From NCBI GenBank assembly GCA_021399395.1, contig JAAFKJ010000042.1, positions 1-31,812 on the forward strand: 31,812 nt of DNA, read 5' to 3'. The DNA comes from Candidatus Heimdallarchaeota archaeon (GTDB lineage Archaea > Asgardarchaeota > Heimdallarchaeia > Heimdallarchaeales > Heimdallarchaeaceae). The translations under genes and the position numbers were made by a program. How positions within the stretch are numbered: the first letter of the stretch is position 1; each line of letters begins with the position of its first letter. The notes below the pieces were generated by a model. That model was not told the DNA's origin. It saw only the letters and a list, made by a program, of their open reading frames with translations, and did no database searches. This document shows positions 18,053 through 30,430 of the stretch, piece after piece.

Positions 18053-19807
18053 CTAAAACAGATACTTTACTTTCCACTCTTTTTTAGGGAACATATAATT
18101 GAAAGTGAAAACAAGAAGAACTAAGCAGACAGCTTCACAAGTGAAAATTAACCAATATCCAACAACAGCTGAAAAAATAAACATAACCATCATTAAAGAT
18201 ATTAAAAGTATAATAAGAACATATTTAGAGAATTTATATTTTCCCTTGATTTCTTCAACAACATATTTGTGCCTGAACTTGCCAAATAACCGAACTTTGA
18301 GTAAAAGTCCAGCTACACCAATTATCGGGAAAACAAGTAAAAAGGATAATGTAAGATACAGTGTTCCAATGAAAATAGGTGATTTAATCATTACTAGAAG
18401 AGACAAAAGCATACCAATTACTATTGTTCCAAAGAAATATGGAATTTTAGATTTCATCTTGTCTCTTTCGTTGATTGGTAGAGCTGCCATGATTGTTTCT
18501 CCTCCTGTTTCTATAGTTGTTGTACTCACAATCATAGCCATTGTATTTGTCAATACATAAACCATCATGATAATGAAATATACAGTTACTGTCGTGTTTC
18601 CATAGATTACATGAAAGTCTTCAACATAGCCAGTAATTGCGGTATAAATTGGCATCATAATTGGTAATATGAGAACAACAATTTGTTGCATTTCTCTTGT
18701 GATAATAGAAAGATCACGTTTCATAAAAGCCCTAACTGGAGGAAGATTTTTAGTAACAATGTCTTCTACTATTGTTTTTCTTCTCATGATTTTCTTTCTT
18801 TTTATTTCAGGAGATGAAATGTTTCTTAAAATTGTAAGAGCTTTTCTAATTACTAAAAAAGTAATTAAACAATGGAATAAAAATCCAATAACAGAACCAA
18901 CTATTGTTAGTGGGGCTACACCATTAAAATCTAAAACAAATATCGATAGTAGATATCCACTTGAGAAAGGGTATGGAACAAACGAAAGTATGTTACTAAT
19001 CAAGGTTGAATCTTTAATAGATAAACCGTTCAAGCCATAAAAAGCATCTAGATTCTGTATACCAATATTAACTACTGAAAAAATAAACATTGATACAAAG
19101 AAATAAGCAAACATGGTTCCAATTCGAATAAAACTTGCTTTTTTTGATGCAAAATCATACTCTTCCATCACAATAGCTAGTTTTCGTGATAAGATGATCA
19201 ATATACCAATGTTAAAACATGTGTTAACCAAAGAAAGAACTATACTTAGTAGAATAATAGCAAGAATTTTCCAGATACTTATATAGGGACCAATCGTCAA
19301 GCTTATGGCTACAGTCATTCCAATCGGTAAGACAAGAGTCATGGCAATTAATTGAACATTGATACTTCTAACGAAAGTTAGTAAGCCTATTTTTTCGATT
19401 TCCTTTCTGCTGAAAGGGAGTGTGTGTATCCATTCATAAGGACCACCTGACATTATTCCCCAAGCTAACATTAGAGCAAATACAACCAGAATTACTAGTT
19501 GAATAAAGAAAAATGCACCATTAACAATACCACTAGCAAAATTAAGCCACTCAAATGAAGAACCTTCAGATAATTGCCTATACATTGAAAAAACTGATAA
19601 AATTGGGAGAAAAGTTAGTGAAGCGATATATATTGTTGCTAACAATTTATAGATTATATCTGGAGATCTTGCTATTCTATCTTTTTCGATTCTTTCCAGA
19701 TATCTCTGTTGATTACTTCCAGCAGATTGAAGTTGAGCGTGAAGTACCGCTTCTTTATAGACTCTTTTAGAAGCTTTGTATAATACTTTATTTCTCAAAA
19801 GAATCAC
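18053..19807 (-). CDS. Putative ABC exporter permease (multi-TM)
   Basis: About 14 TMs, LPFSR and LPINER motifs in the two halves. Start overlaps the ABC ATPase stop. Confidence 0.8.
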   Translation of the reverse strand: MILLRNKVLYKASKRVYKEAVLHAQLQSAGSNQQRYLERIEKDRIARSPDIIYKLLATIYIASLTFLPILSVFSMYRQLSEGSSFEWLNFASGIVNGAFFFIQLVILVVFALMLAWGIMSGGPYEWIHTLPFSRKEIEKIGLLTFVRSINVQLIAMTLVLPIGMTVAISLTIGPYISIWKILAIILLSIVLSLVNTCFNIGILIILSRKLAIVMEEYDFASKKASFIRIGTMFAYFFVSMFIFSVVNIGIQNLDAFYGLNGLSIKDSTLISNILSFVPYPFSSGYLLSIFVLDFNGVAPLTIVGSVIGFLFHCLITFLVIRKALTILRNISSPEIKRKKIMRRKTIVEDIVTKNLPPVRAFMKRDLSIITREMQQIVVLILPIMMPIYTAITGYVEDFHVIYGNTTVTVYFIIMMVYVLTNTMAMIVSTTTIETGGETIMAALPINERDKMKSKIPYFFGTIVIGMLLSLLVMIKSPIFIGTLYLTLSFLLVFPIIGVAGLLLKVRLFGKFRHKYVVEEIKGKYKFSKYVLIILLISLMMVMFIFSAVVGYWLIFTCEAVCLVLLVFTFNYMFPKKEWKVKYLF

Positions 19808-20625
19808 TTCTTTTTATCATTATGAAACATCTTCCTAAGATTTTGAATAATATGATTTACTGACTCATCTTGTTGAGTTAGTTTAAGAAAAATCGTTTCC
19901 AAATCAGCACCAGCCTTATCTGCCATCTTAGAGAGTTCTTCCACTGTACCTAAAGCAACAAGTTTTCCTCTATCAATGATAGCTATTCTATCACATATAT
20001 CCTCTGCAACTTCAAGAATGTGGGTAGAAAAAATTACTGACCCTCCTCTTTCACTATGAAGTTCTATGATCTCTTTTACGACTTTAGCAGATTTAGCATC
20101 TAAACCAGTTAGAGGTTCATCAAGGATTAGTAAATCAGGATCATGAATTAGAGACGCTATAACTTGCATCTTCTGTTTATTACCTCTAGACAAGGTAGCG
20201 ATCAGTTTCTCATAATATTCGACAGCTTCTAAACTTTCAAGATAATATCTTAGTTTCTCAGTTGTTTTAGCTTCATCGAGATCGCGTATTGAAGTTATGA
20301 AATCAAATAACATTTTTGGAGTCATTGATTTATAGATTAAGGGGTCTTCAGAAACATAACCTAGTTTCTTCTTAATTTCCACTTCATCTTTCTCGGGATG
20401 GAGACCAAAAACTTCTATTTCTCCTTGATCTAACTCTAACAATCCTAAAATCAGTTTCACAGTTGTAGTCTTCCCCGCCCCATTTGGACCCAAGAGTCCG
20501 AATACCTCTCCAGGTTTAACTTCAAAAGACAAATTATTTACAGCGACAACATCACCAAAGCTTTTGGTAATTTGCTGTACTTTAATCATGGGTTCTTTCC
20601 CAATACTCATTTCTTCATTCCTCAC
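19804..20625 (-). CDS. ABC transporter ATP-binding protein
   Basis: Walker A GPNGAGKTT, signature LSRGNKQK, Walker B LLILDEP, H-loop STH. True start may be ATG 20610. Confidence 0.95.
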   Translation of the reverse strand: MRNEEMSIGKEPMIKVQQITKSFGDVVAVNNLSFEVKPGEVFGLLGPNGAGKTTTVKLILGLLELDQGEIEVFGLHPEKDEVEIKKKLGYVSEDPLIYKSMTPKMLFDFITSIRDLDEAKTTEKLRYYLESLEAVEYYEKLIATLSRGNKQKMQVIASLIHDPDLLILDEPLTGLDAKSAKVVKEIIELHSERGGSVIFSTHILEVAEDICDRIAIIDRGKLVALGTVEELSKMADKAGADLETIFLKLTQQDESVNHIIQNLRKMFHNDKKK

Positions 20626-20698: not shown

Positions 20699-22108
20699 CT
20701 AAATCAGCTTTAATAAAAGAGGGTTGCGTTTGATAGCTAACTCAATAGCTTTATCTACAAAACTTGAAGGAAACCCAGAATGTTCAAACAAATTACCAAA
20801 AAGCGGTTCCGCTTGCTCTTTTGAATAAAGGGAAAAGGAAGTTATGATATATGACATCGACACAAGTTTTCTTAATTCATTGAATATTTTTATTGCAGTT
20901 TTAGTAATATCCTCATTGACACTTTTCTCAAATAATCCGAAGAAATATTCACTCTGTTGCTGACCTTTAACAGTTCCTTCTAACAGATTAATTTTCATCA
21001 AATCTTTATATTCTGCTTTAGATAAATCCAGTTGATTAAATGTCCCAATATTCATTCCACATAGACTAGTATCTAATTCAGTTAGAGCGGAAATAGCATC
21101 CTCTTGAATAGTTATCCAGCTTTGTACCTTTACTGCAAGATGTTGATTAAACATCGAAAGAGTATCAATTGCAAGCTTTACAGTTAATTTGTCTCCTGCT
21201 AACAGTACTTTTCTTCCACTAATAACAGAGTATAGTACATCACTAATTTGTCTTGGAATAGCCGTGGAAAGGAATGCTAAAGAAAGTTCCTCAACATCTG
21301 TATGAGTAAAATGATTACCGGGATCTTCCATATTTTGGATAATGTCAAGAATATCTAACATCTCGAAATTATAATCTTGATCGGTCAAAATGCGGAGTTT
21401 TTCTTCAATCAATGGAAATAATCGAAAGACCGTATGGTCTAAATCGGGTTTGAATTTTAATATTCCTACATTTGTTCTCATTTCAGCTTTTTCTATTATA
21501 ACCAGTTCTGATGTTTTCTTCTGAGGTACAAATAGTAGCATTCCAGTTAGTTTCTTATCAAAATCATAAGTCAGTCTGTGCTGAATAATCATGTTTAGAG
21601 TTTCTATAGTTTCTTCTTTCTTACCAACAGATTCTATAATCTCTGTATCTGTTTCATCAAAGTGAATTAGACTAAAAACAAAAGGTTCAGATTCTCTTAG
21701 AGGATTCTTTGAGAAAAATAATGGTAAGTTGAAGATATTATGAAGAACATGTTCTAGAATTAGTTCAGCTTCACCTTCACTTATTAAAGTTTCATCTCTA
21801 CCTTCAAGCATAGGAGATGCACTAAGTTGTATCTGTTCTAATATTTGAGCGAGTTGACGGTCTGAGAAGAAAGTCTCTTCAACTTTAGTTTCCATGATGA
21901 ATATGAAATCGTGAACTTCAGCAAATGAGATGTTTTTATCATGATAGGATATAGATTGTAATTCTTGTCTATGAACTTCTTTTGCGAATGTAATAATTGC
22001 ACTGATAAGGCTTGTAGCCAATATCTGTTGAGTGTCATCTGCTGATTCTGGTTTTGAAGCTAACAATAATCCTGATGCCGTTACTAATGATAATTGTAAG
22101 CTTTGCAT
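20699..22108 (-). CDS. Longin + DENN-like protein (SMCR8/folliculin-like C-terminal core), paralogue B
   Basis: N-terminal longin pattern SLVTASGLLL...LATSLISAIITFAKEV and C-terminal VLYSVISGRKVLLAGDKLTVKLAIDTLSMF. Confidence 0.65.
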   Translation of the reverse strand: MQSLQLSLVTASGLLLASKPESADDTQQILATSLISAIITFAKEVHRQELQSISYHDKNISFAEVHDFIFIMETKVEETFFSDRQLAQILEQIQLSASPMLEGRDETLISEGEAELILEHVLHNIFNLPLFFSKNPLRESEPFVFSLIHFDETDTEIIESVGKKEETIETLNMIIQHRLTYDFDKKLTGMLLFVPQKKTSELVIIEKAEMRTNVGILKFKPDLDHTVFRLFPLIEEKLRILTDQDYNFEMLDILDIIQNMEDPGNHFTHTDVEELSLAFLSTAIPRQISDVLYSVISGRKVLLAGDKLTVKLAIDTLSMFNQHLAVKVQSWITIQEDAISALTELDTSLCGMNIGTFNQLDLSKAEYKDLMKINLLEGTVKGQQQSEYFFGLFEKSVNEDITKTAIKIFNELRKLVSMSYIITSFSLYSKEQAEPLFGNLFEHSGFPSSFVDKAIELAIKRNPLLLKLI

Positions 22109-22199
22109 AGTAATTTAATCTAAAACATCATTTAAGTAAATTTCTTTAGTGCTAACGCTGTGGGAAAAGTTTTTCTTCAGCCCATGTTAACTGAATTTA

Positions 22200-22955
22200 A
22201 TGAAAGATGACACTATTTTTCTTCAAGAGGCAGTTCATAAAGCTTGGGTAGCCAAAGACAATGTTCTCTATAAAGGATGGATTTTAAGATTATCTGAAGG
22301 GATTACAAAGAGAGCAAATAGTGTTCTTACACTTAGATATTTTGGTGATAATGTAGCAGCTGATATAGAAAATGTCGAGACAATCTATAGAAGCAGAGAT
22401 CTTCCTGTAATTTTTCAGATTGCAGATTATCATCAACCAGAAAATATTATGGGTATTCTAGAATCATTAGGCTATCATCCTTGTGATGAAACTATTGTTA
22501 TGAATAGAAATCTCAAAGAGTTTAAAATAACAAAATGGGATTCAAAAATATCTTATACTACTGAAGTTGGCGTTGCAGATTATTGGTTTGAAACTCTAGA
22601 AAGACTAAGTACTAGTTCTTCAACAAGAATACTTGGAATTAGAAGTATTGTTGACAGGTGTACATTTGGCAAAATCACTTGCTATGCTCAAGAAAACAAA
22701 GAGATTATAGGAACCGTGCTTGGGATAATAGAAGCTGATAATCTTGGTATCTACAACCTAATAGTGAATCCAGATAGAAGACGGGAAGGAATTGGAGAAA
22801 AAATCATGTTAAAAGTGATGAACTGGGCACAAGAAAATGGGATTAAATCAATCTATTTGGCAGTTGAAAAAAGTAATTTAGAAGCTTTAGCACTATATAG
22901 AAAACTAGGATTCGATAAGAAATACTGTTATAGATATTATGAGAAAGATGAATAA
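22200..22955 (+). CDS. GNAT family N-acetyltransferase
   Basis: GWILR...TKRANSV, LIVNPDRRREGIG (motif A), LAVEKSNLEALALYRKLGF (motif B). Confidence 0.92.
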   Translation: MKDDTIFLQEAVHKAWVAKDNVLYKGWILRLSEGITKRANSVLTLRYFGDNVAADIENVETIYRSRDLPVIFQIADYHQPENIMGILESLGYHPCDETIVMNRNLKEFKITKWDSKISYTTEVGVADYWFETLERLSTSSSTRILGIRSIVDRCTFGKITCYAQENKEIIGTVLGIIEADNLGIYNLIVNPDRRREGIGEKIMLKVMNWAQENGIKSIYLAVEKSNLEALALYRKLGFDKKYCYRYYEKDE

Positions 22956-22962
22956 AATAGGT

Positions 22963-24369
22963 CTAGAGTAAATAATCAAGTAACATATTCCTTTTTACTG
23001 TCATCTCAAGAGCTTTTCTAACGAAACTAGATGAATAACCTGATTTTGAACTCAATTCTTTCAATTTTATTCTCCCTTTGGTTTCATCAACTAAACTTAT
23101 TGATGTTAAATCAAGTGATAAAGAAACAATATTCTCTAACTCCAAAGCTATTTTTGTCACTAGTTCTGAAATTGAGAGTTTTTTGATGGTATCATACAGT
23201 TTTTTGAAATGACTACTTGATTTTAATCCGGTTGTTTTCCCCGAATTTAAATTGATACTTGTATCAGATTCAGTTAAAGTTTCATTATCGAATAAAATCT
23301 TGTATACCTTTGTAGACATCCCACATATACGGGCAGTCAAATCACATTTTCCATTTTGAGTTATTTCAGTTTCTGAAATCCATGGGTTAACAGATGTTTG
23401 CATGTGTTGATTAAATATTGAAAGTGTGTCAATGACAAGTTTTACAGTGGGTTTATCGCCTATTACAAAAATCGGCTCTCCAACAACTGCTGAATAAATA
23501 GCTTTATCCAGATTTCGACCAACTATTCTTTCCAAGAAAGACGGAGACAAATCTTCTAGGTTAATACTAGAGATTCTATTTCCAGGATCATCAATATCCA
23601 TTAGAGTGTTAATAATCTCTTCCATATTGTGATCACTTTCTTCTTCTGATAGAATGTGAAGCATTTGATCCATCATAGTAAATAATCTGAATAAAACCAA
23701 ATCTAATTCTCGAGGAGTTTTTAATATACCAATTTTGGAGGTTTGACCATCAGTATCTACAATTATGTAAACGGTACTATTATCTTCAGGAAGATGTGTT
23801 ATTATTCCTCTTAGAGCACCTTTACATTTCTCATTGGCTTTTAGAGTGTCTAACATAAGAGCTATCGTCGGTATAAAAGAGCCAGAACCAACTTTATCCT
23901 TAATTTCCCATCCTTTATCTGTATGCAAGAGAGTAAACTGAGCACGCTCTGCCTTGTGTAATGGTTGTTCTGATATAGAATAATGAAGTAGTTGAATATC
24001 TTGTAAACATTTATCTAAGATTATTTCTGCTTCCCCATCAGTTATTATATCGGGGTCAACTCCTTCTAAAATTGGTTCGGTACAAGACTTCAGCTGTTCT
24101 AGTAACTGTCCCAGTCTTTTCTCTGTTAGAGTTGAATCTTCATCTATTGTTTCAAGGATAAGAACGAAATCATGAACTCTAACAAAAGAGACCGTGCGAT
24201 CATGATAAGAGATTGATTGTAACTCTCTATGATGAACTTCTTTTGAGAATGAAATTAATGCTGTCATTAAGCCAGTAGCAAGAATTTGTCTAGTATCATC
24301 TACAACTTCTGGCTTTGAAGCGAGTAGAATACCTGTAGAGGTTACTAGTGATACCTTAATGTTAAGCAT
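22963..24369 (-). CDS. Longin + DENN-like protein (SMCR8/folliculin-like C-terminal core), paralogue A
   Basis: N-terminal SLVTSTGILL...LATGLMTALISFSKEV and C-terminal AIYSAVVGEPIFVIGDKPTVKLVIDTLSIF. Colinear with 20699..22108. Confidence 0.65.
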   Translation of the reverse strand: MLNIKVSLVTSTGILLASKPEVVDDTRQILATGLMTALISFSKEVHHRELQSISYHDRTVSFVRVHDFVLILETIDEDSTLTEKRLGQLLEQLKSCTEPILEGVDPDIITDGEAEIILDKCLQDIQLLHYSISEQPLHKAERAQFTLLHTDKGWEIKDKVGSGSFIPTIALMLDTLKANEKCKGALRGIITHLPEDNSTVYIIVDTDGQTSKIGILKTPRELDLVLFRLFTMMDQMLHILSEEESDHNMEEIINTLMDIDDPGNRISSINLEDLSPSFLERIVGRNLDKAIYSAVVGEPIFVIGDKPTVKLVIDTLSIFNQHMQTSVNPWISETEITQNGKCDLTARICGMSTKVYKILFDNETLTESDTSINLNSGKTTGLKSSSHFKKLYDTIKKLSISELVTKIALELENIVSLSLDLTSISLVDETKGRIKLKELSSKSGYSSSFVRKALEMTVKRNMLLDYLL

Positions 24370-24461
24370 TAATAGATTTTGTAAATTAGCTATATATTAA
24401 AATTTACTTTAAGCAGTACTTCAAAAAATAGATAGAAAATGATAAGATAGAATGATTTGAA

Positions 24462-25322
24462 CTACTTCATTCTTTTCTCGCGATTTCTCTTATCACGAAT
24501 CTCATCCATTATTTCAGGAGTTAGAGTAGTAACACCCATTTCCTCAGCTTGCTTAACAATCTGTGTCATAGCTTTCTTAAGAAAAACTCTTGGAATAGCA
24601 ACAATCTTTGCACAAGCTTCATCAGTCCAATGAACATCAGAATCAAGTCTATCGGCTTGATAACGAACAGTACCTAAATCTACGCCTTTGCCTTTTGGTA
24701 ATGCTTCTGAATATGGAGTTCTAGGTTCACTGAACCAGAAGTGTTTATTGTCTCGATAACCATAATCGATTGGTAAAGATGGAAATTTCCCGTTCCCTTC
24801 GACAAGAGCGTTATGCCATTTCTTCTTCATCAAAATTCGATCTATTCGTAAGAGAAAGTGACTCTCATCTTTTGTCCCATTATAGTGAAAAGATTCACCA
24901 TCATCCCAGGTACATTCAAATATCTGAACCGATTCTTGGACATACTTAGGTATTTTTCCATTGGTCATTTTGCCGTTTGACGGTTGCAAAGTAAAGATGC
25001 TATCATTAAGTTTTTCTTCCGATGTTTGACCTGGAAAACCTAATTTTACTGTATTCTTCAATATTTTCTTATCATAAGGTATGAAGTTCAAAGTAGCTTT
25101 TCTTGTTCGTAGAACATTCTGTGCAGTATTACTAGTGTTTCTTGAAATCAGCATCATTGCATGTTGATCTGCTATTCCAAATGGAAAAACTAAGGAGTAA
25201 GGTCCAATGTTAGTAACACCAGTTTCAGAGATTGTCGTTATTAAAACAACCGGCATAGGATAAAATGACGAGGTTTGATAAAAATTATCCAATATTCGTA
25301 CTTCTTCAAAGTCGTTTGTCAT
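24462..25322 (-). CDS. Flavin reductase-like (DIM6/NTAB split-barrel) protein fused to a C-terminal PCP_red-like domain
   Basis: PMPVVLITT...NIGPYS...SNTAQNV...ATLNF...FEC, then C-terminal WTDEA...IPRVF...AEEMGVTTLTPEIMDEIR. Confidence 0.78.
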   Translation of the reverse strand: MTNDFEEVRILDNFYQTSSFYPMPVVLITTISETGVTNIGPYSLVFPFGIADQHAMMLISRNTSNTAQNVLRTRKATLNFIPYDKKILKNTVKLGFPGQTSEEKLNDSIFTLQPSNGKMTNGKIPKYVQESVQIFECTWDDGESFHYNGTKDESHFLLRIDRILMKKKWHNALVEGNGKFPSLPIDYGYRDNKHFWFSEPRTPYSEALPKGKGVDLGTVRYQADRLDSDVHWTDEACAKIVAIPRVFLKKAMTQIVKQAEEMGVTTLTPEIMDEIRDKRNREKRMK

Positions 25323-25327
25323 TTAGT

Positions 25328-26161
25328 TCACCTCTTCTGTAATTGTTGGTATTGCATTTCGAACCAAGATTTCTTTCGTATCATCTTTCTGTACCATGCT
25401 GGCATTACCCACCCAAGGTACATTGTAACATAAGCTGTTGCATATGCGAGTGCCCTAAAAGCTGAAACTGTAATCATCAAAGCTGGAAGATTAGAAATAC
25501 TACTGTCAAAAGCTGAAAGCAACCCCGCCAGAAGATATAAAAACACTCCAATACCAATTGTTTGTAATCCTCTCTTTCTAATAGGTTGATCTGATTTTCT
25601 TGCAAGCCTTAAAGCTCTAATTCCTATTCTACTTGTAACAAAAATTGAGATTACTATTTGAGCTACAAGGATGGGCCAGGTATATGAAATTGTAAATACA
25701 TCATTAGTAATGTAGGTTGGTTCTGAAAACAATGAATTTGTATAGATATTATCATAAGCAATTACAGCAGTAATAAGACCATAAATTACCATTATTATAG
25801 CAAAAAGATAGGTTTTGACAATTTCATTATCTTTTAAAATATGTCTGCAGCCAAAGAAATAGAGAAATGCAAATGCAGGGAGGATAATCATGGGAGTTAA
25901 AGATCCCATCTGATAAATAGTATCTGTCATTACACCTTCATTGTAAATGAGCGAAATACGGTATGCAATGCTAAAAGCTGATGTTAAAGAAAATAGGAAG
26001 TAAGATGAAAGTAGCATGAATGTACCAACTGTTTTCTTGCGAAAGAAGTTGACTAAGAGCGTGATAACTAGTGCTAGACTGAAAGCCATGTTTATTACAG
26101 ATGAAACAATAATGAAAAATGAAGCAGGTTCTATTAATGAAAGATCAACCATCATCATCAC
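25328..26161 (-). CDS. Stand-alone seven-transmembrane protein
   Basis: Seven hydrophobic segments, basic TM5-TM6 loop (RALRLARKSDQPIRKRG), basic C-terminal tail. Start overlaps the GTPase stop. Confidence 0.8.
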   Translation of the reverse strand: MMMMVDLSLIEPASFFIIVSSVINMAFSLALVITLLVNFFRKKTVGTFMLLSSYFLFSLTSAFSIAYRISLIYNEGVMTDTIYQMGSLTPMIILPAFAFLYFFGCRHILKDNEIVKTYLFAIIMVIYGLITAVIAYDNIYTNSLFSEPTYITNDVFTISYTWPILVAQIVISIFVTSRIGIRALRLARKSDQPIRKRGLQTIGIGVFLYLLAGLLSAFDSSISNLPALMITVSAFRALAYATAYVTMYLGWVMPAWYRKMIRKKSWFEMQYQQLQKR

Positions 26162-26685
26162 CCGATAAACTCATCAACAAACCATTTGAAGGAATTGAAT
26201 ATTCCATCTCCTGTCTTTGCTGAAGTTTCAAAAACTGCCCATTTAAAAGGCAAATCCAGCAAATTGAATTCTTCAATAAAGAGTGATTTTTCTATTACGT
26301 TGGGTTCATCACTCTTATTGAGCAAAATCAGTATTATCAGATCTTGATCCAATTGTGCGTGAATGGTTTGTTCAAACACTTCCTTTGCTTCATCAAATCT
26401 CATAACATTAGATCGATCAATAACGAATACAATTCCATCAGATTTTTCGTTGATATTGTGCCACATGTTTCGAAAATCTTCTTGACCAGCTAAATCAAAA
26501 ACATTAACCTGCAAATTTGGTAGATGTAGAGTTTCTCTGTTAACACCCATAGTCGGTGTTGTATCAACAAATTCACCAGTTTCTAGAAATCTCAGTATTG
26601 TTGTTTTACCAGCATCATCAAGACCACAGATAGTTATATCTGCATGCTTTGTTCTGGTTCGGAATAGTCTTTGTAAGAATGACAT
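26158..26685 (-). CDS. Arf-family small GTPase
   Basis: G1 GLDDAGKTT, G2 PTMG, G3 DLAGQ followed by FRNMW, G4 NKSD, G5 TSAK, N-terminal amphipathic MSFLQRLF. ATG 26685 follows AGGTG (the ORF track uses GTG 26697). Confidence 0.93.
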   Translation of the reverse strand: MSFLQRLFRTRTKHADITICGLDDAGKTTILRFLETGEFVDTTPTMGVNRETLHLPNLQVNVFDLAGQEDFRNMWHNINEKSDGIVFVIDRSNVMRFDEAKEVFEQTIHAQLDQDLIILILLNKSDEPNVIEKSLFIEEFNLLDLPFKWAVFETSAKTGDGIFNSFKWFVDEFIG

Positions 26686-26697
26686 TTTATTCCACAC

Positions 26698-27192
26698 CTA
26701 GTCCCAAAGATCGTCAGATAACGCGTCTATAGCATTGCCATTTTTGTCATTCCCTTGTTTTGGAAAATCAAATTTTATGGTTGAAGTAGAAGTTATCTCG
26801 ATCTTGAATTGTCCTTTGTTAAAGCCTTTGTATAGTTTTGGTAGAATTTCTTCCAGAGTATGTGTTGCGAGTAAATCTTTCTTTTCAAGTTCTGCTACTA
26901 CCCATGAGAACACCTGTTTTATAGAGTTTGCATCATAGTTGCTGGTATTAAACACAGCGACTAATGAAGCAAGATTATCTCTGTTTTCTGCAGATGGTAT
27001 GCGAAAGATAAAACTTGTTAAATTCAGATTATTAAAGGTCGTTGAAGCAAAATCCCCAGGATTGGATCCCATAGGGATGGTTTTGTAAACAAGCTGATTC
27101 ATGGAATCAGACGGAATGACATCAGGGAAAGATTTGACTAACTCTAATCCCCGTGTGCCCATATTGACTAAACATAAACTTAATGGTTTCAT
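26698..27192 (-). CDS. Stand-alone uDENN/longin-like protein
   Basis: LCLVNMGTRGLELVKSFP...LVYKTIPMG...SFIFRIPSAENRDNLASLVAVF fits the uDENN pattern. Immediately upstream of the GTPase. Confidence 0.62.
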   Translation of the reverse strand: MKPLSLCLVNMGTRGLELVKSFPDVIPSDSMNQLVYKTIPMGSNPGDFASTTFNNLNLTSFIFRIPSAENRDNLASLVAVFNTSNYDANSIKQVFSWVVAELEKKDLLATHTLEEILPKLYKGFNKGQFKIEITSTSTIKFDFPKQGNDKNGNAIDALSDDLWD

Positions 27193-27560
27193 TTAAAATC
27201 CCCTTACTAATCATGATTTACCTCATTCGTTTAAATATCTTTTTAAAACTGCAAAACGCTATTTCTAAGGGGTTTATCCGCGATTTTAAGCATTTTCGAG
27301 TGTGCAGTAAAGTGCACAAACGACGTTTTACTGAACGGTGTTCAGTCTAATGCAAATCCGTACATTTTCAATCCCCATATCAAGAGCATAATGAACAGAT
27401 GTTAACTTAATTAATTAAGATTGCACAACATTCATAATTTATTTAGATAAGTTTTTTAATAAAAAAAAGAACCAATTCAATTGAGATTTTAAGTTTAAGG
27501 AGTTATACCGACAGAATTAGGTTTTAATCTCATTATCAGATGGAATTCGAGTTCATTAAG

Positions 27561-27573
27561 ATAGTTTTATAAA
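27561..27573 (+). promoter_or_regulatory. Putative TATA box region (ATAGTTTTATAAA) for tldD/tldE
   Basis: TTTATAAA about 60 bp upstream of ATG 27633. The identical 13-mer occurs upstream of the second tldD. Confidence 0.5.
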
Positions 27574-27632
27574 TTTCTTAGGGTGAGAATGGTTAGGTTA
27601 AATATTTAATTTTAACCAATAGGTGAAATTAA

Positions 27633-29051
27633 ATGGAAAAAGATTATGTTTTTGATTTATTACAAAAAGCAGTTGAAAAGGGTCAAAAACTTGGTGGAGA
27701 GTTTATTGAAGCAAGATATGATGATTTGCAAGAAACAACTATTAACTTAACTAATGAAATGGTTAAGCAATCATCATCATTACACCGAAAAGGAATAGGT
27801 GTGATGGCATACTATAACGGAACACCAGGTTACAGTTTTACACCTGAATTGAGCAAGGAGAGTATAGAGGAAGCAACTATCAGAGCTGTAAAACTAGCCA
27901 AATCAACTGATAACAGAAATACAATAAAACTAGATTTTGACGAAATTCCATCAGTTAAAGATAAAATTGATGCGAAGTTAAAGAAACATCCTAGAGATTT
28001 TGAGTTTGGAGAAAAATTAGAACTTCTGAAAAGAGGAGTTGGATCCATTAAAGAAGAAATTGAACCAACAACTACAACTGGATTATATGGTGAATCATAT
28101 GGTGAGAAGTACTTTGTAAATTCAGAAGGGTCAGAAATTTTTTGGGTTCCAATAGTTGTAGATTTGCGAATGATTAGTGTCATCATTAAAGATGGACAAC
28201 AAGCTACAGCCTTTGAAGGAACTGGAGCATCAAAAGGTTTCGAGTTTTTTGAAATGAAAGGATCATCCCCTGAGGAAGTTGGGAAATTATCAGGTAAAAC
28301 TTGTAAAGAAGCACTTGATGCAGTAGCAGCTCCAGCAGGAAAAACAACAACACTCGTATCGCCACAGATGGGGGGAGTTGTAGTTCATGAATCTTTTGGT
28401 CACTTATCAGAATCAGATTTTGTTGTAACTGGTCAATCTCCTCTGTCAGATAGAGTTGGAGAACAACTTGGAAGCGATCACGTTTCAATTTATGATGAAG
28501 GAATTACTGAATATGGAGGGTATTATCTCCCATATGATGATCAAGGTATTAAAACAGGAAAGACCGTCCTTCTCGAAGATGGAATCTTGAAAGGATATCT
28601 TCACAATAGAGGAACAGCAAAGAAAATGAATGCAGAAATGACTGGCAATAGCAGAGCAATTAACTTCCTATTTAATCCGATAGTACGAATGAAAAACACA
28701 TACTTTGGAAAAGGAGACTTAACATTTGAAGAAGCTGTAGAACAAGTAGGAACTGGAGTATATGCGGTAGACATGTCTGGAGGACAAGTCGGTCTAGACG
28801 GAAATTTCATGTTTAATTGCAGCAAAGGTTACTTGATCGAAAACGGTGAGATAACTAAACCAATCAAAAATACTGCTTTATCAGGAAACATTCTCGAGCT
28901 ACTGAAACATGTTCAAGGAGCAACAAAAGAAATCAAAATTAAAACCGGTTACTTCGGTGGTTGCGGAAAAAACGGACAGAATGGATTAGCTGTAGGATAT
29001 GGAGGTCCGAATGTTATAATGGGTCAAGTTCTCGTTGGAGGTGCACAATAA
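27633..29051 (+). CDS. tldD: TldD family metalloprotease, catalytic subunit
   Basis: HESFGH (HExxGH), YDDQG, RMKNTY, GGQV, GGCGK conserved Cys. AGGTGA SD. Confidence 0.92.
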   Translation: MEKDYVFDLLQKAVEKGQKLGGEFIEARYDDLQETTINLTNEMVKQSSSLHRKGIGVMAYYNGTPGYSFTPELSKESIEEATIRAVKLAKSTDNRNTIKLDFDEIPSVKDKIDAKLKKHPRDFEFGEKLELLKRGVGSIKEEIEPTTTTGLYGESYGEKYFVNSEGSEIFWVPIVVDLRMISVIIKDGQQATAFEGTGASKGFEFFEMKGSSPEEVGKLSGKTCKEALDAVAAPAGKTTTLVSPQMGGVVVHESFGHLSESDFVVTGQSPLSDRVGEQLGSDHVSIYDEGITEYGGYYLPYDDQGIKTGKTVLLEDGILKGYLHNRGTAKKMNAEMTGNSRAINFLFNPIVRMKNTYFGKGDLTFEEAVEQVGTGVYAVDMSGGQVGLDGNFMFNCSKGYLIENGEITKPIKNTALSGNILELLKHVQGATKEIKIKTGYFGGCGKNGQNGLAVGYGGPNVIMGQVLVGGAQ

Positions 29052-30430
29052 TGTCGCTAGAAGATATAAGGAACAAAGTATTAGGGATAGCTGATCAAAC
29101 AGTCAAATATGCTAGAGATCTCAAAGTCCCATCTGCAGAAATTTTTGTAATTGAGCAATCTACTACTAGTCTGACAGATAATAAAGGTAAAGTAGACAGT
29201 AGAGATGGTATTATACAAGGAATAGGGATAAGAGCAGCGATAGGGAAACAACTAGGTTTTGCGAGTAGTACAGGTTTTGAAGATGAAACACTAAAGAGCA
29301 CTCTTCAAGCAGCTTATAATATCGCTAAAGTCAGCCCAGAAAATCCTATGTTCAATGGATTTGTAGCCGAAACAAAAACAGCTAAAGAAGGTATTCTTGA
29401 TTCAAATATACTTAATCTTGAAGCTGATGATTTAATTGAGAAATGTAATATTATGAATCAAGAAGTAGATCTGAGTGATAAAAGAATTATTTCCGGAAGT
29501 TTTGGTTCAAACATTTCACACACGGGATATGCAATTGGAACCACTGAAGGATGTTTAGCATCTTCTTTAACAACATCATTTTCAGCTAACTCTTACTTTG
29601 TTGTTACAGAAGCAGGAGATAGAAAAACAGCAGGTGATTTCATAAATAGTAGAGAGATAAAATCAGTTGAAGGAATTGCACCAAGAGCATTGAACAAAGC
29701 ACTTTCCTCTCTTGGTTCTAAAGCTTTTGGAGGTTCTGAAGTTCTTCCTACAGTTTGGGAAGCTCGTGAAGCAGCATCATTTCTAGCTTTTGCATTTTTC
29801 AATGTATTCTCAGGAACTACTTATGTCGAAAAGAGCAATCCATGGTCGGACAAACTCAATGAACAAGTTGCATCTAAGGAGCTAACTGTCATAGATGATG
29901 GTCAAAAACCTGATACTCAAGCATGTCATGCAATTGACTCAGAAGGAACACCTAAACAAACTACAACAATCATTAAAGAGGGTATTCTACAGACCTTTCT
30001 GTTCAATAAAATGTATGGTGAGGTAGCAGGTTTCGCTACTACAGGGAACGCACAAAGAGGAGGACCAATGGGTGGTGCAGCACCATATGAAAGTACTCCA
30101 AGCGTAGGTTTTAATCAGATTCTAGTAGAAGAAGTAGCCAAGAATCTTAACGAGCAGATAGCTGAGATGGATAGGGGAATCTTAATCACTGGTACTCCAA
30201 TTGGATTATTTACAGCTAATCCAGTTACAGGTGATTTCAGTGTCACTTGCAATGATACTTTTCTAATTGAAAATGGAGAAAAAGTTCATCCTCTGAAATC
30301 TGTCAGCATTGCAGGCAACTACTTTGAAACTTTGAATAACATCCGTTTCATTGGTAACGATAGAGAACCGTCAGGGTGGCCAATAGATACACCTAGTATG
30401 ACTTTTACTGGACATACAATCTCTGACTAA
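29051..30430 (+). CDS. pmbA: TldE/PmbA family protein, non-catalytic partner
   Basis: GIGIRA...GFASST, DSEGTP, TTGNA, NPVTGDFS, IENGE, IAGN, no HExxH. ATG 29051 overlaps the tldD stop (TAATG). Confidence 0.9.
   Translation: MSLEDIRNKVLGIADQTVKYARDLKVPSAEIFVIEQSTTSLTDNKGKVDSRDGIIQGIGIRAAIGKQLGFASSTGFEDETLKSTLQAAYNIAKVSPENPMFNGFVAETKTAKEGILDSNILNLEADDLIEKCNIMNQEVDLSDKRIISGSFGSNISHTGYAIGTTEGCLASSLTTSFSANSYFVVTEAGDRKTAGDFINSREIKSVEGIAPRALNKALSSLGSKAFGGSEVLPTVWEAREAASFLAFAFFNVFSGTTYVEKSNPWSDKLNEQVASKELTVIDDGQKPDTQACHAIDSEGTPKQTTTIIKEGILQTFLFNKMYGEVAGFATTGNAQRGGPMGGAAPYESTPSVGFNQILVEEVAKNLNEQIAEMDRGILITGTPIGLFTANPVTGDFSVTCNDTFLIENGEKVHPLKSVSIAGNYFETLNNIRFIGNDREPSGWPIDTPSMTFTGHTISD

Follow-up and report, generated by a model that had tools for sequence, protein, structure and literature searches.

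A conserved archaeal gene triad for an NPRL2-like longin, a GTPase of the Arf family and a seven-helix membrane protein, beside a separate pair of longin-DENN-like genes

In eukaryotes, several small GTPases are controlled by GTPase-activating proteins (GAPs) built on the longin fold, among them GATOR1 (NPRL2-NPRL3-DEPDC5), which acts on RagA/B, C9orf72-SMCR8-WDR41, which acts on ARF1, and FLCN-FNIP2, which acts on RagC/D. NPRL2, FLCN and SMCR8 supply an arginine finger from the longin domain (Traffic 2025, PMC12290439), and GATOR1 is bound at high cholesterol by LYCHOS (10.1101/2024.11.21.624772). Related parts occur in Asgard archaea. [quoted passage not shown] FLCN-like DENN proteins in Heimdall genomes and NPRL2-like Asgard longins were reported by Liu et al. 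(preprint), and FLCN/SMCR8-type arginine-finger longins of Asgards were described with their GTPase partner, ArfR or Rag, left open (PMC12290439). In a structural study of the cultured Asgard MK-D1, GTPases were generally not found in operons with longin or roadblock genes, and partners could not be matched from gene layout. Here we describe a locus in a 31,812-nucleotide stretch of DNA from a Heimdallarchaeota archaeon (contig JAAFKJ010000042.1, positions 1 to 31,812; "the window") in which a longin gene (g1), an Arf gene (g2) and the gene of a seven-transmembrane (7TM) protein (g3) follow one another.

This locus was first read, from its letters alone, as one signalling system of six genes, g1 to g6, encoding a membrane sensor, a GTPase switch and its regulators (the original prediction). 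Its remark that the individual domains are known in Asgards agrees with the available text of the Liu et al. preprint. We consider it rather likely that the first three genes, which we call the triad, are a self-contained operon for a membrane-associated Arf switch in which the longin and the 7TM protein are the partners of the GTPase and the three act as a functional unit. The triad consists of:

26698-27192, minus strand: g1, a 164-amino acid (aa) stand-alone longin, NPRL2-like by fold
26158-26685, minus strand: g2, a 175-aa Arf-family (ArfR-type) GTPase, within an open reading frame (ORF) at 26158-26697 and with its ATG at 26685
25328-26161, minus strand: g3, a 277-aa seven-helix membrane protein with a GTG start

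Read directly, the junctions are tight: 12 nt separate the g1 stop from the g2 ATG, and the TGA stop of g2 and the GTG start of g3 overlap as GTGA. A fourth minus-strand gene, g4, starts 5 nt after the end of g3, so that the spacing of the first four genes is as originally described. Upstream of the g1 ATG, a TATA-like A/T box lies at about 35-50 nt and a G-rich stretch at about 8 nt, again read directly.

To place these genes in context we took all 43 places with a strong match to the g1 family (E<=1e-21) in 400 genomes of the phylum and scored each with profiles of g1, g2, g3 and the longin-longin-DENN (LLD) family to which g5 and g6 belong; loci and genomes are cited by our own labels (L and G). 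One place was cut by a contig end, leaving 42 that could be assessed. The full triad, in the same order and on the same strand with contiguous or overlapping frames, was found in 28 of them, including the window and two copies with broken genes. Nine further places have g1 followed directly by g3 with no Arf gene, one has a 213-aa polytopic protein between g1 and g3, and four have a g1-type gene alone. The longin gene is paired with a 7TM gene in 38 of the 42 places, and the co-encoding of a GTPase switch, a candidate longin regulator and a 7TM protein that had been proposed for this locus is maintained in 28. The g1 family profile matches 61 of the 400 genomes, with strong full-length matches confined to the family of the window and one other family of the same class.

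The triad is also multiplied within genomes, G081 alone having six triads and one doublet. Paralogous triads from different genomes pair up as whole units: the pairs L013-L016, L014-L018 and L011-L015 come out as nearest neighbours for g1, g2 and g3 alike, and the distance matrices of the three genes correlate at r 0.88-0.92, values that are inflated by shared descent. These patterns point clearly to duplication of the triad as a block. At 13 triad loci the flanking genes (96 ORFs) have no relation to one another between loci. That g1, g2 and g3 stand together with no functional meaning is hardly credible, given that two families of the class keep their order, strand and contiguous or overlapping frames in 28 places and that the three genes were duplicated together. 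Some cassettes look decayed: the Arf gene of L080 is in two pieces, the 7TM gene of L088 is in three and the longin gene of L090 contains an in-frame TGA. One orthologous pair of triads has the gene of a 200-aa leucine-rich-repeat protein directly after the 7TM gene (L014:10003-10605, L018:10118-10720). In L020 (3863-8385), the region 3' of the triad encodes two Roadblock/LC7 proteins, a 278-aa protein weakly matching the LLD profile and a 452-aa protein with hits to Fuz_longin_1 and Roadblock.

The second gene of the triad encodes an Arf-family protein, as the original prediction had it. It matches Pfam PF00025 (Arf) over the whole domain (profile positions 5-173 of 174) with an E-value of 1.2e-40 and 139.3 bits against a cut-off of 22.3. 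Its best match among solved structures by sequence is Arf1 (3lrp_A, E 7.1e-32), and its nearest solved relatives are Arf1, Arl1 and Arf6; 8oun_A and 8oum_A, named only "GTP-binding protein", are also among the best matches (E 5.2e-30). In 19 copies from triad loci the G motifs GLDxAGKTT, PTMGxN, DLxGQ, NKxD and SAK are conserved and the catalytic Gln68 is invariant (19/19). The N-terminus of these copies, MSFLxxLF, places hydrophobic residues at i, i+1, i+4 and i+5 with M1, F3 and F8 nearly invariant, and is predicted to form an Arf-type amphipathic helix. The original prediction had also pointed to the kinship of Arf proteins with G-alpha subunits; what we find of it in g2 is a sub-threshold Pfam match (36.4 bits against a cut-off of 48.8).

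The first gene encodes a protein with no Pfam family, and a search with its family profile found no related solved structure by sequence. An AlphaFold2 model built from an alignment of 21 relatives (predicted local distance difference test, pLDDT, 78.2; predicted template modelling score, pTM, 0.75) has a longin fold with a hairpin and a disordered tail, and the C-terminal domain specific to NPRL2 is missing. When this model was compared with the Protein Data Bank (PDB) using Foldseek, all top 14 matches were GATOR1 or yeast SEAC chains of the NPRL2/NPRL3 type. VIA-align superposed it on NPRL2 (9o5a_H) with Z 16.7 and a root-mean-square deviation (rmsd) of 2.9 over 149 residues, including the extra hairpin; Z was 14.4 for the yeast Npr2-type protein, 10.8 for FLCN, 9.4 for C9orf72 and about 9 for coat, SNARE and generic longins. 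The fold of g1 is therefore nearest to a catalytic subunit of the GAP-type longins. The protein had been labelled uDENN; the longin fold in that label stands, and the DENN kinship gives way to NPRL2 as best match.

The conservation of one residue is consistent with this likeness. Arg71, located in the loop that precedes strand 5, is unchanged in all 21 family members and in all 18 diverse relatives, among which the only other invariant column is P40. It is the sole invariant charged residue, and by position its loop is the one that carries the arginine finger in GAP-type longins. The finger of NPRL2 is Arg78. In the four lone g1-type copies, which have neither a 7TM nor an Arf neighbour, Glu or Lys replaces Arg71. 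On these grounds we tentatively propose that g1 is the GAP of g2 and acts through Arg71, a proposal to which we give slightly less than an even chance. This is lower than for the triad as a unit because the motif before strand 2 is G-L, the triad encodes a single longin and the doublets without Arf keep the arginine.

These and several other points weigh against our interpretation of the triad and of g1. The match of Arg71 to the catalytic arginine of NPRL2 rests on loop position and alignment ranges, with no residue-level superposition. The GP motif expected before strand 2 is replaced by G15-L16 in the triad subfamily, while among 18 wider relatives G-P occurs in seven and N-P in six others. 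The longin GAPs of eukaryotes bring together two longin domains from two subunits, whereas the triad has one, and there is no second longin gene in the triads examined that could complete a catalytic pocket. All nine longin-7TM doublets retain Arg71 with no adjacent Arf gene, where it may act in trans or serve another role, and the link of the longin to the 7TM protein is more constant than its link to Arf. In addition, related genomes in the survey are not independent samples, and a strong g1 match was found in only 6 of 24 genomes of the window's own genus. Thus, the triad is patchy within its genus and is accessory. For the 7TM protein, the topology described below is based on hydropathy and the distribution of Lys and Arg only, and the protein belongs to no described 7TM family, with no Pfam family and scattered single sub-threshold matches in 19 members.

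Some of the same observations would suit a g1 that is a GEF, scaffold or effector of Arf, comparable to Mon1-Ccz1, Ragulator, TRAPP or SRX-SR-beta, with a structural role for the arginine. GEFs and platforms make up the majority of longin-based regulators (Traffic 2025), and the missing proline of the GP motif, the single longin and the nine doublets fit such a role. We regard it as somewhat unlikely, given that the closest fold by a clear margin is that of the catalytic GAP subunit NPRL2 and not of Mon1, Ccz1, LAMTOR or SRX, that the only invariant charged residue lies in the arginine-finger loop of GAP-type longins, and that this arginine is lost in exactly the four copies without neighbours.

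The disordered C-terminal tail of g1 ends in a conserved D-x-L-W. We considered this tail as evidence of contact with the 7TM protein and rejected it, since the motif is present in every family member, including the four with no 7TM neighbour; it marks the family and proves no contact. Complex prediction of g3 with g1 gave scores of 0.40, 0.30 and 0.27, and the median of 0.30 against a mark of 0.32, obtained without controls, counts neither way. A second and distant g1-like longin, 150 aa long, is encoded in the genome of the window (G000:C39:7621-8073, L037); it has the G-P motif and the conserved arginine, adjoins an ABC exporter and has no GTPase or 7TM neighbour; the same was seen in L039-L041.

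The third gene agrees with its earlier 7TM label. Alignment-averaged hydropathy gives seven hydrophobic segments, with Lys and Arg in alternate loops and in the C-terminal tail, and the protein is predicted to have its N-terminus outside and its C-terminus inside. With this predicted topology, all invariant residues of g3 lie at the cytoplasmic ends of helices or in the tail, and mean column identity is 0.63 for cytoplasmic, 0.44 for transmembrane and 0.25 for outside positions. The third intracellular loop has 17 residues in 18 of 19 members; the second extracellular loop varies from 21 to 39. In NCBIfam, MAB_1171c reached 21.9 bits where the cut-off is 100, and nothing usable was found there. 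A Yip1-like or transporter-like identity was considered and set aside, as each had single weak matches only. Searching 1.84 billion representatives with the g3 profile returned 147 relatives at E<=0.001, 57-398 aa long, all of them stand-alone; none is a long fusion, and in the eight that we checked, the three longest among them, no Pfam domain exceeds its cut-off. An Atlas cluster of look-alikes is automatically named "histidine kinase N-terminal 7TM region", which we note as a lead only.

A further interpretation is that the triad is a minimal sorting or trafficking device in which Arf-GTP and a small longin, of the kind of the sigma and zeta subunits in adaptor and COPI coats, shape or sort membrane with the 7TM protein as their cargo or anchor. 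Both the g1 model and the g5 model do align to AP sigma and zeta-COP longins (Z about 9-11), and Asgard Arfs are able to drive association with membranes in yeast and in human cells (Zhu et al.). Compared with g1, however, longins of the coat type have Z values far lower than NPRL2, the varying neighbours of 13 triad loci (96 ORFs) include no further coat-like gene that is kept, and a multi-copy g3 that is variable outside and conserved inside fits a receptor family better than cargo. We therefore think such a device improbable.

If the triad is the Arf switch that we favour, GTP-bound g2 would sit on the membrane through its N-terminal helix. The longin g1 would bind the switch face of g2 and contribute Arg71 as its arginine finger, in the manner of NPRL2 on RagA and SMCR8 on ARF1. 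The membrane partner would be g3, whose invariant cytoplasmic loops and tail could hold or control g1, g2 or both, while its outer loops would diversify among paralogous cassettes as in a receptor family.

We wished to determine whether the remaining genes of the locus belong with the triad. The other features of the locus and its flanks are:

24462-25322, minus strand: g4, a 286-aa flavin-reductase-like protein with a PCP_red-like C-terminus
24370-24461, minus strand: g4-g5 spacer of 92 nt with a T-run and a TATA-like element, read directly
22963-24369, minus strand: g5, a 468-aa LLD protein, so classed by fold
22200-22955, plus strand: GNAT acetyltransferase between g5 and g6 (Pfam Acetyltransf_1 E 1.1e-17, Rv0428c_C E 1.1e-18)
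20699-22108, minus strand: g6, a 469-aa LLD paralogue of g5
18053-20625, downstream of g6: ABC ATPase and a 584-aa permease-like protein
27193-27632: divergent intergenic region of 440 nt between g1 and TldD, facing two TldD/PmbA genes
27633-30430: TldD/PmbA-type metallopeptidase gene pair that faces the locus

The plus-strand GNAT gene between the paralogues and the 92-nt spacer, which probably marks the boundary between two transcription units, did not figure in the original prediction. In relatives (L005, L009, L045, L046), two such TldD/PmbA pairs stand in tandem.

The g5 and g6 proteins are identical at 173 of 465 positions (37%; BLASTP E 3e-107), and g6 matches the family profile with E 5.6e-195. 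Neither has a DENN, FLCN or SMCR8 match in Pfam, the only hits being sub-threshold (Intu_longin_1 E 0.0017, Fuz_longin_1 E 0.023); NCBIfam gave no usable match and the LLD profile found no PDB entry by sequence. The AlphaFold2 model of g5 (pLDDT 83.5, pTM 0.73) has two longin-like domains followed by a C-terminal alpha/beta-plus-helical domain, and its top Foldseek matches are DENND1B, MON1-CCZ1, DENND10, a chain of the C9orf72 complex, BLOC-3 and FLCN. By VIA-align, residues 1-129 align to the Sec22b longin (Z 12.6), residues 273-461 to the FLCN DENN domain 3v42_B (Z 11.8, rmsd 3.1, 174 aligned), residues 221-463 to SMCR8 (Z 11.9, rmsd 3.4) and the C-terminal part (about 270-466) to the DENND1A DENN domain (Z 11.9). 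The model has the layout of a DENN module, with longin/uDENN, core DENN and helical dDENN parts. The earlier description of g5 and g6 as longin-DENN paralogues therefore agrees with a fold like that of FLCN, SMCR8 and DENND1, on fold only. Tri-longin proteins (Mon1/Ccz1, Fuzzy/Inturned, HPS1/4) also rank high in Foldseek, with alignment at the domain level limited to g5 residues 1-132; we set aside a tri-longin protein of the Mon1-Ccz1 type as the main identity of g5 and g6, as the third domain aligns to DENN domains. From the family column list and by inspection, neither longin domain has an invariant arginine in its strand 4-5 loop. We conclude that g5 and g6 probably form an FLCN-FNIP-like heterodimer that regulates some small GTPase. 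Some LLD relatives (P0009 and others) carry the precomputed Pfam label PF27109, which may already name the family. Across the class, the DENN-like positions of the LLD profile (about 270-465) give weak matches to many other proteins 330-800 aa in length, so that these genomes encode several further DENN-like proteins.

The LLD genes have a context of their own. In the window's genus, 21 of 24 genomes have LLD family members and six have a strong g1 match; the LLD backbone is TldD followed by LLD-GNAT-LLD-ABC, with both paralogues kept as a pair in relatives. Among 13 LLD loci from genomes that were chosen for LLD matches, four of the same genus (L045-L047, L051) have TldD and g5-GNAT-g6 without g1-g4, and two of these (L046, L051) have the ABC ATPase and permease after g6 as in the window. 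A GNAT gene lies between the LLD genes also in L005, L006 and L009, as in L045-L047 and L051. No triad adjoins an LLD gene in any of the 13 loci, although one (G082) has a triad 6 kb away. From the backbone without g1-g4 in the same genus it follows that the triad and g4 are an insertion here, or a deletion elsewhere, between TldD and g5, and as the sequences stand the LLD pair is a module separate from the triad, the GNAT gene being part of the LLD backbone and not of the triad. The LLD genes keep the same company (GNAT, ABC ATPase, a permease-like protein of about 580 aa) in several genus genomes without a triad (L045-L051, L057), and a functional tie of the folliculin-like pair to the transporter is conceivable.

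The original prediction, in which all six genes are one signalling system and the LLD heterodimer is, like FLCN-FNIP or C9orf72-SMCR8, a GAP or GEF of the same Arf beside a 7TM sensor, draws on the LLD fold with its matches to FLCN, SMCR8 and DENND1, and on gene position. An LLD gene directly follows 7 of 28 triads, six in the window's genus and one elsewhere with a single divergent LLD gene and different flanks (G014/L010), so that two flanking contexts are represented; in each of the six genus genomes that match g1 strongly the LLD pair adjoins the triad, and G082 has an LLD gene 6 kb from its triad. By contrast, an LLD neighbour is missing from 21 of 28 triads, none of the 13 LLD loci adjoins a triad and four show the backbone without g1-g4, the LLD family is found in 21 of 24 genus genomes and a strong g1 match in 6, the 92-nt spacer with promoter-like features divides the units, and the strand 4-5 loops of the LLD longins lack an invariant arginine. 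We judge the six-gene system unlikely and consider it doubtful that the LLD pair serves this g2 Arf; coupling of the pair to this Arf is optional at best. The synteny survey that the original prediction had recommended thus recovers a conserved triad neighbourhood and no conserved six-gene unit.

The fourth gene is also not part of the unit. Its earlier flavin reductase/PCP_red label is borne out by weak matches only: Flavin_Reduct at 22.3 bits against a Pfam cut-off of 27, PCP_red at 20.2 against 32.5, and the FMN-binding protein 1eje_A at E 1.7e-4, with Atlas look-alikes, a lead from a language model, in bacterial Flavin_Reduct(+PCP_red) clusters. It follows the triad in 5 of 19 triad loci (the window and L005-L008) and is absent from L009-L022, including L009, a near relative that is 85-92% identical in g1-g3. 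By its distribution, g4 is an occasional, incidental passenger of the triad and unrelated to the switch.

Distant relatives of g1 outside the triads have partners of another kind. Of 20 sampled loci, most of them in other families of the phylum, 14 have a distant g1-like longin no more than 2.5 kb from a protein of about 300 aa with an Arf domain, the C-terminal part of which protein, where matched, resembles a longin/roadblock domain, and most of these longin-Arf operons also encode two polytopic membrane proteins of about 215 aa. L025-L033 and L042-L044 have this Rag-like layout, with an N-P longin, the two polytopic proteins and the Arf domain at the N-terminus of the approximately 300-aa protein; in some genomes two such operons lie 3-13 kb apart. 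In other genera of the window's family (L034-L036), a g1-like longin with G-P and a D-A-L-W tail is followed by a 212-213-aa polytopic protein and a 246-254-aa g3-like 7TM protein, in an operon without a GTPase gene; a pyridine-nucleotide disulphide oxidoreductase gene follows in L034 and L036.

A broader proposal would join the triad and the LLD pair to the ancestry of lysosomal nutrient sensing. The triad would be an archaeal receptor-GTPase-GAP unit in which the 7TM protein senses a cue from outside or from the membrane and sets the level of Arf-GTP through the arginine-finger longin, held by its conserved acidic-aromatic tail. This layout would share ancestry with that of eukaryotic lysosomal nutrient sensing, where GATOR1 or FLCN longin GAPs and a membrane sensor such as LYCHOS or SLC38A9 together control Rag/Arf GTPases, and in the window's lineage the LLD pair would have become an additional, FLCN-FNIP-like regulator for this Arf. 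As a whole we find this proposal rather improbable.

The domain families discussed here have already been published, and the triad as a combination appears in no paper that we searched. Full-text searches and the text available to us gave no description of a longin-Arf-7TM operon, and the supplements of Liu et al., Zhu et al. (Dataset D27) and PMC12290439, which treats 15 Asgard longins, may list some of the genes; Supplementary Dataset D27 of Zhu et al. names two C9orf72-complex-like candidates. The triad offers candidate native partners for an Asgard Arf, that is, one Arf, one NPRL2-like longin and one membrane protein that are copied as a block, and the proteins are small enough for joint expression. 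If g1 is an R71-dependent GAP longin with a 7TM membrane partner, longin control of Arf/Rag-type GTPases at the membrane would predate eukaryotes. What this locus itself contributes is a negative result: the FLCN-like DENN pair next door is separate, and a six-gene system should not be assumed.

Compared with GATOR1, g1 shares the NPRL2 longin fold with its hairpin and has a conserved arginine in what is by position the corresponding loop; if the triad is a unit, a multi-helix membrane protein and a GTPase are part of the functional set in both, and in other Asgard families the partner GTPase has a C-terminal longin/roadblock-like domain, as Rag proteins do. By contrast, g1 is only 164 aa long, has no NPRL2 C-terminal domain and no match at the sequence level and carries G-L in place of GP, the triad operon encodes neither NPRL3 nor DEPDC5, and g2 is of the Arf type without a roadblock domain. 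LYCHOS/GPR155 is GPCR-like (G-protein-coupled receptor-like) and lysosomal, and g3 has no detectable relation to it. The g5/g6 pair is, like C9orf72-SMCR8-WDR41 and FLCN-FNIP2, a conserved pair of longin-DENN paralogues, with an Arf nearby in the window's lineage; it differs in its extra N-terminal longin, the lack of a DENN, FLCN or SMCR8 match in Pfam and of an invariant finger-loop arginine, and in that its conserved neighbours are the GNAT and ABC transporter genes and not a GTPase. The Asgard ArfR/AArf proteins of Vargova et al. and Zhu et al. are of the same family as g2, which is from a Heimdallarchaeial genome and likewise has an N-terminal amphipathic helix; the available text of those papers gives no genomic context, whereas g2 comes with two fixed neighbours. 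The Roadblock-Rab-DENN operon of Liu et al. (2020 preprint / 2021) is from the same phylum and built of the same kinds of parts, but combines a Rab-like GTPase and a DENN protein with a roadblock protein resembling LAMTOR1, and its available text mentions no Arf or 7TM partner. Like a GPCR beside G-alpha, g3 is predicted to be N-out/C-in with seven helices and a conserved cytoplasmic face, beside a GTPase of the Arf/G-alpha group, and is variable outside and present in many copies; in contrast, no 7tm Pfam family was found in 19 g3 members, the G-alpha score of g2 is 36.4 against 48.8 bits and the regulator is a longin. MglA-MglB is likewise a prokaryotic small GTPase co-encoded with a small regulator of the longin/roadblock fold. 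MglB is a roadblock homodimer that is not known to use an arginine finger, MglA is not of the Arf type and there is no dedicated 7TM partner. The triad is thus of the kind in which a small GTPase is encoded with a longin regulator, with the dedicated 7TM partner as its new element, and the DENN pair beside it is of a kind already known from Asgards.

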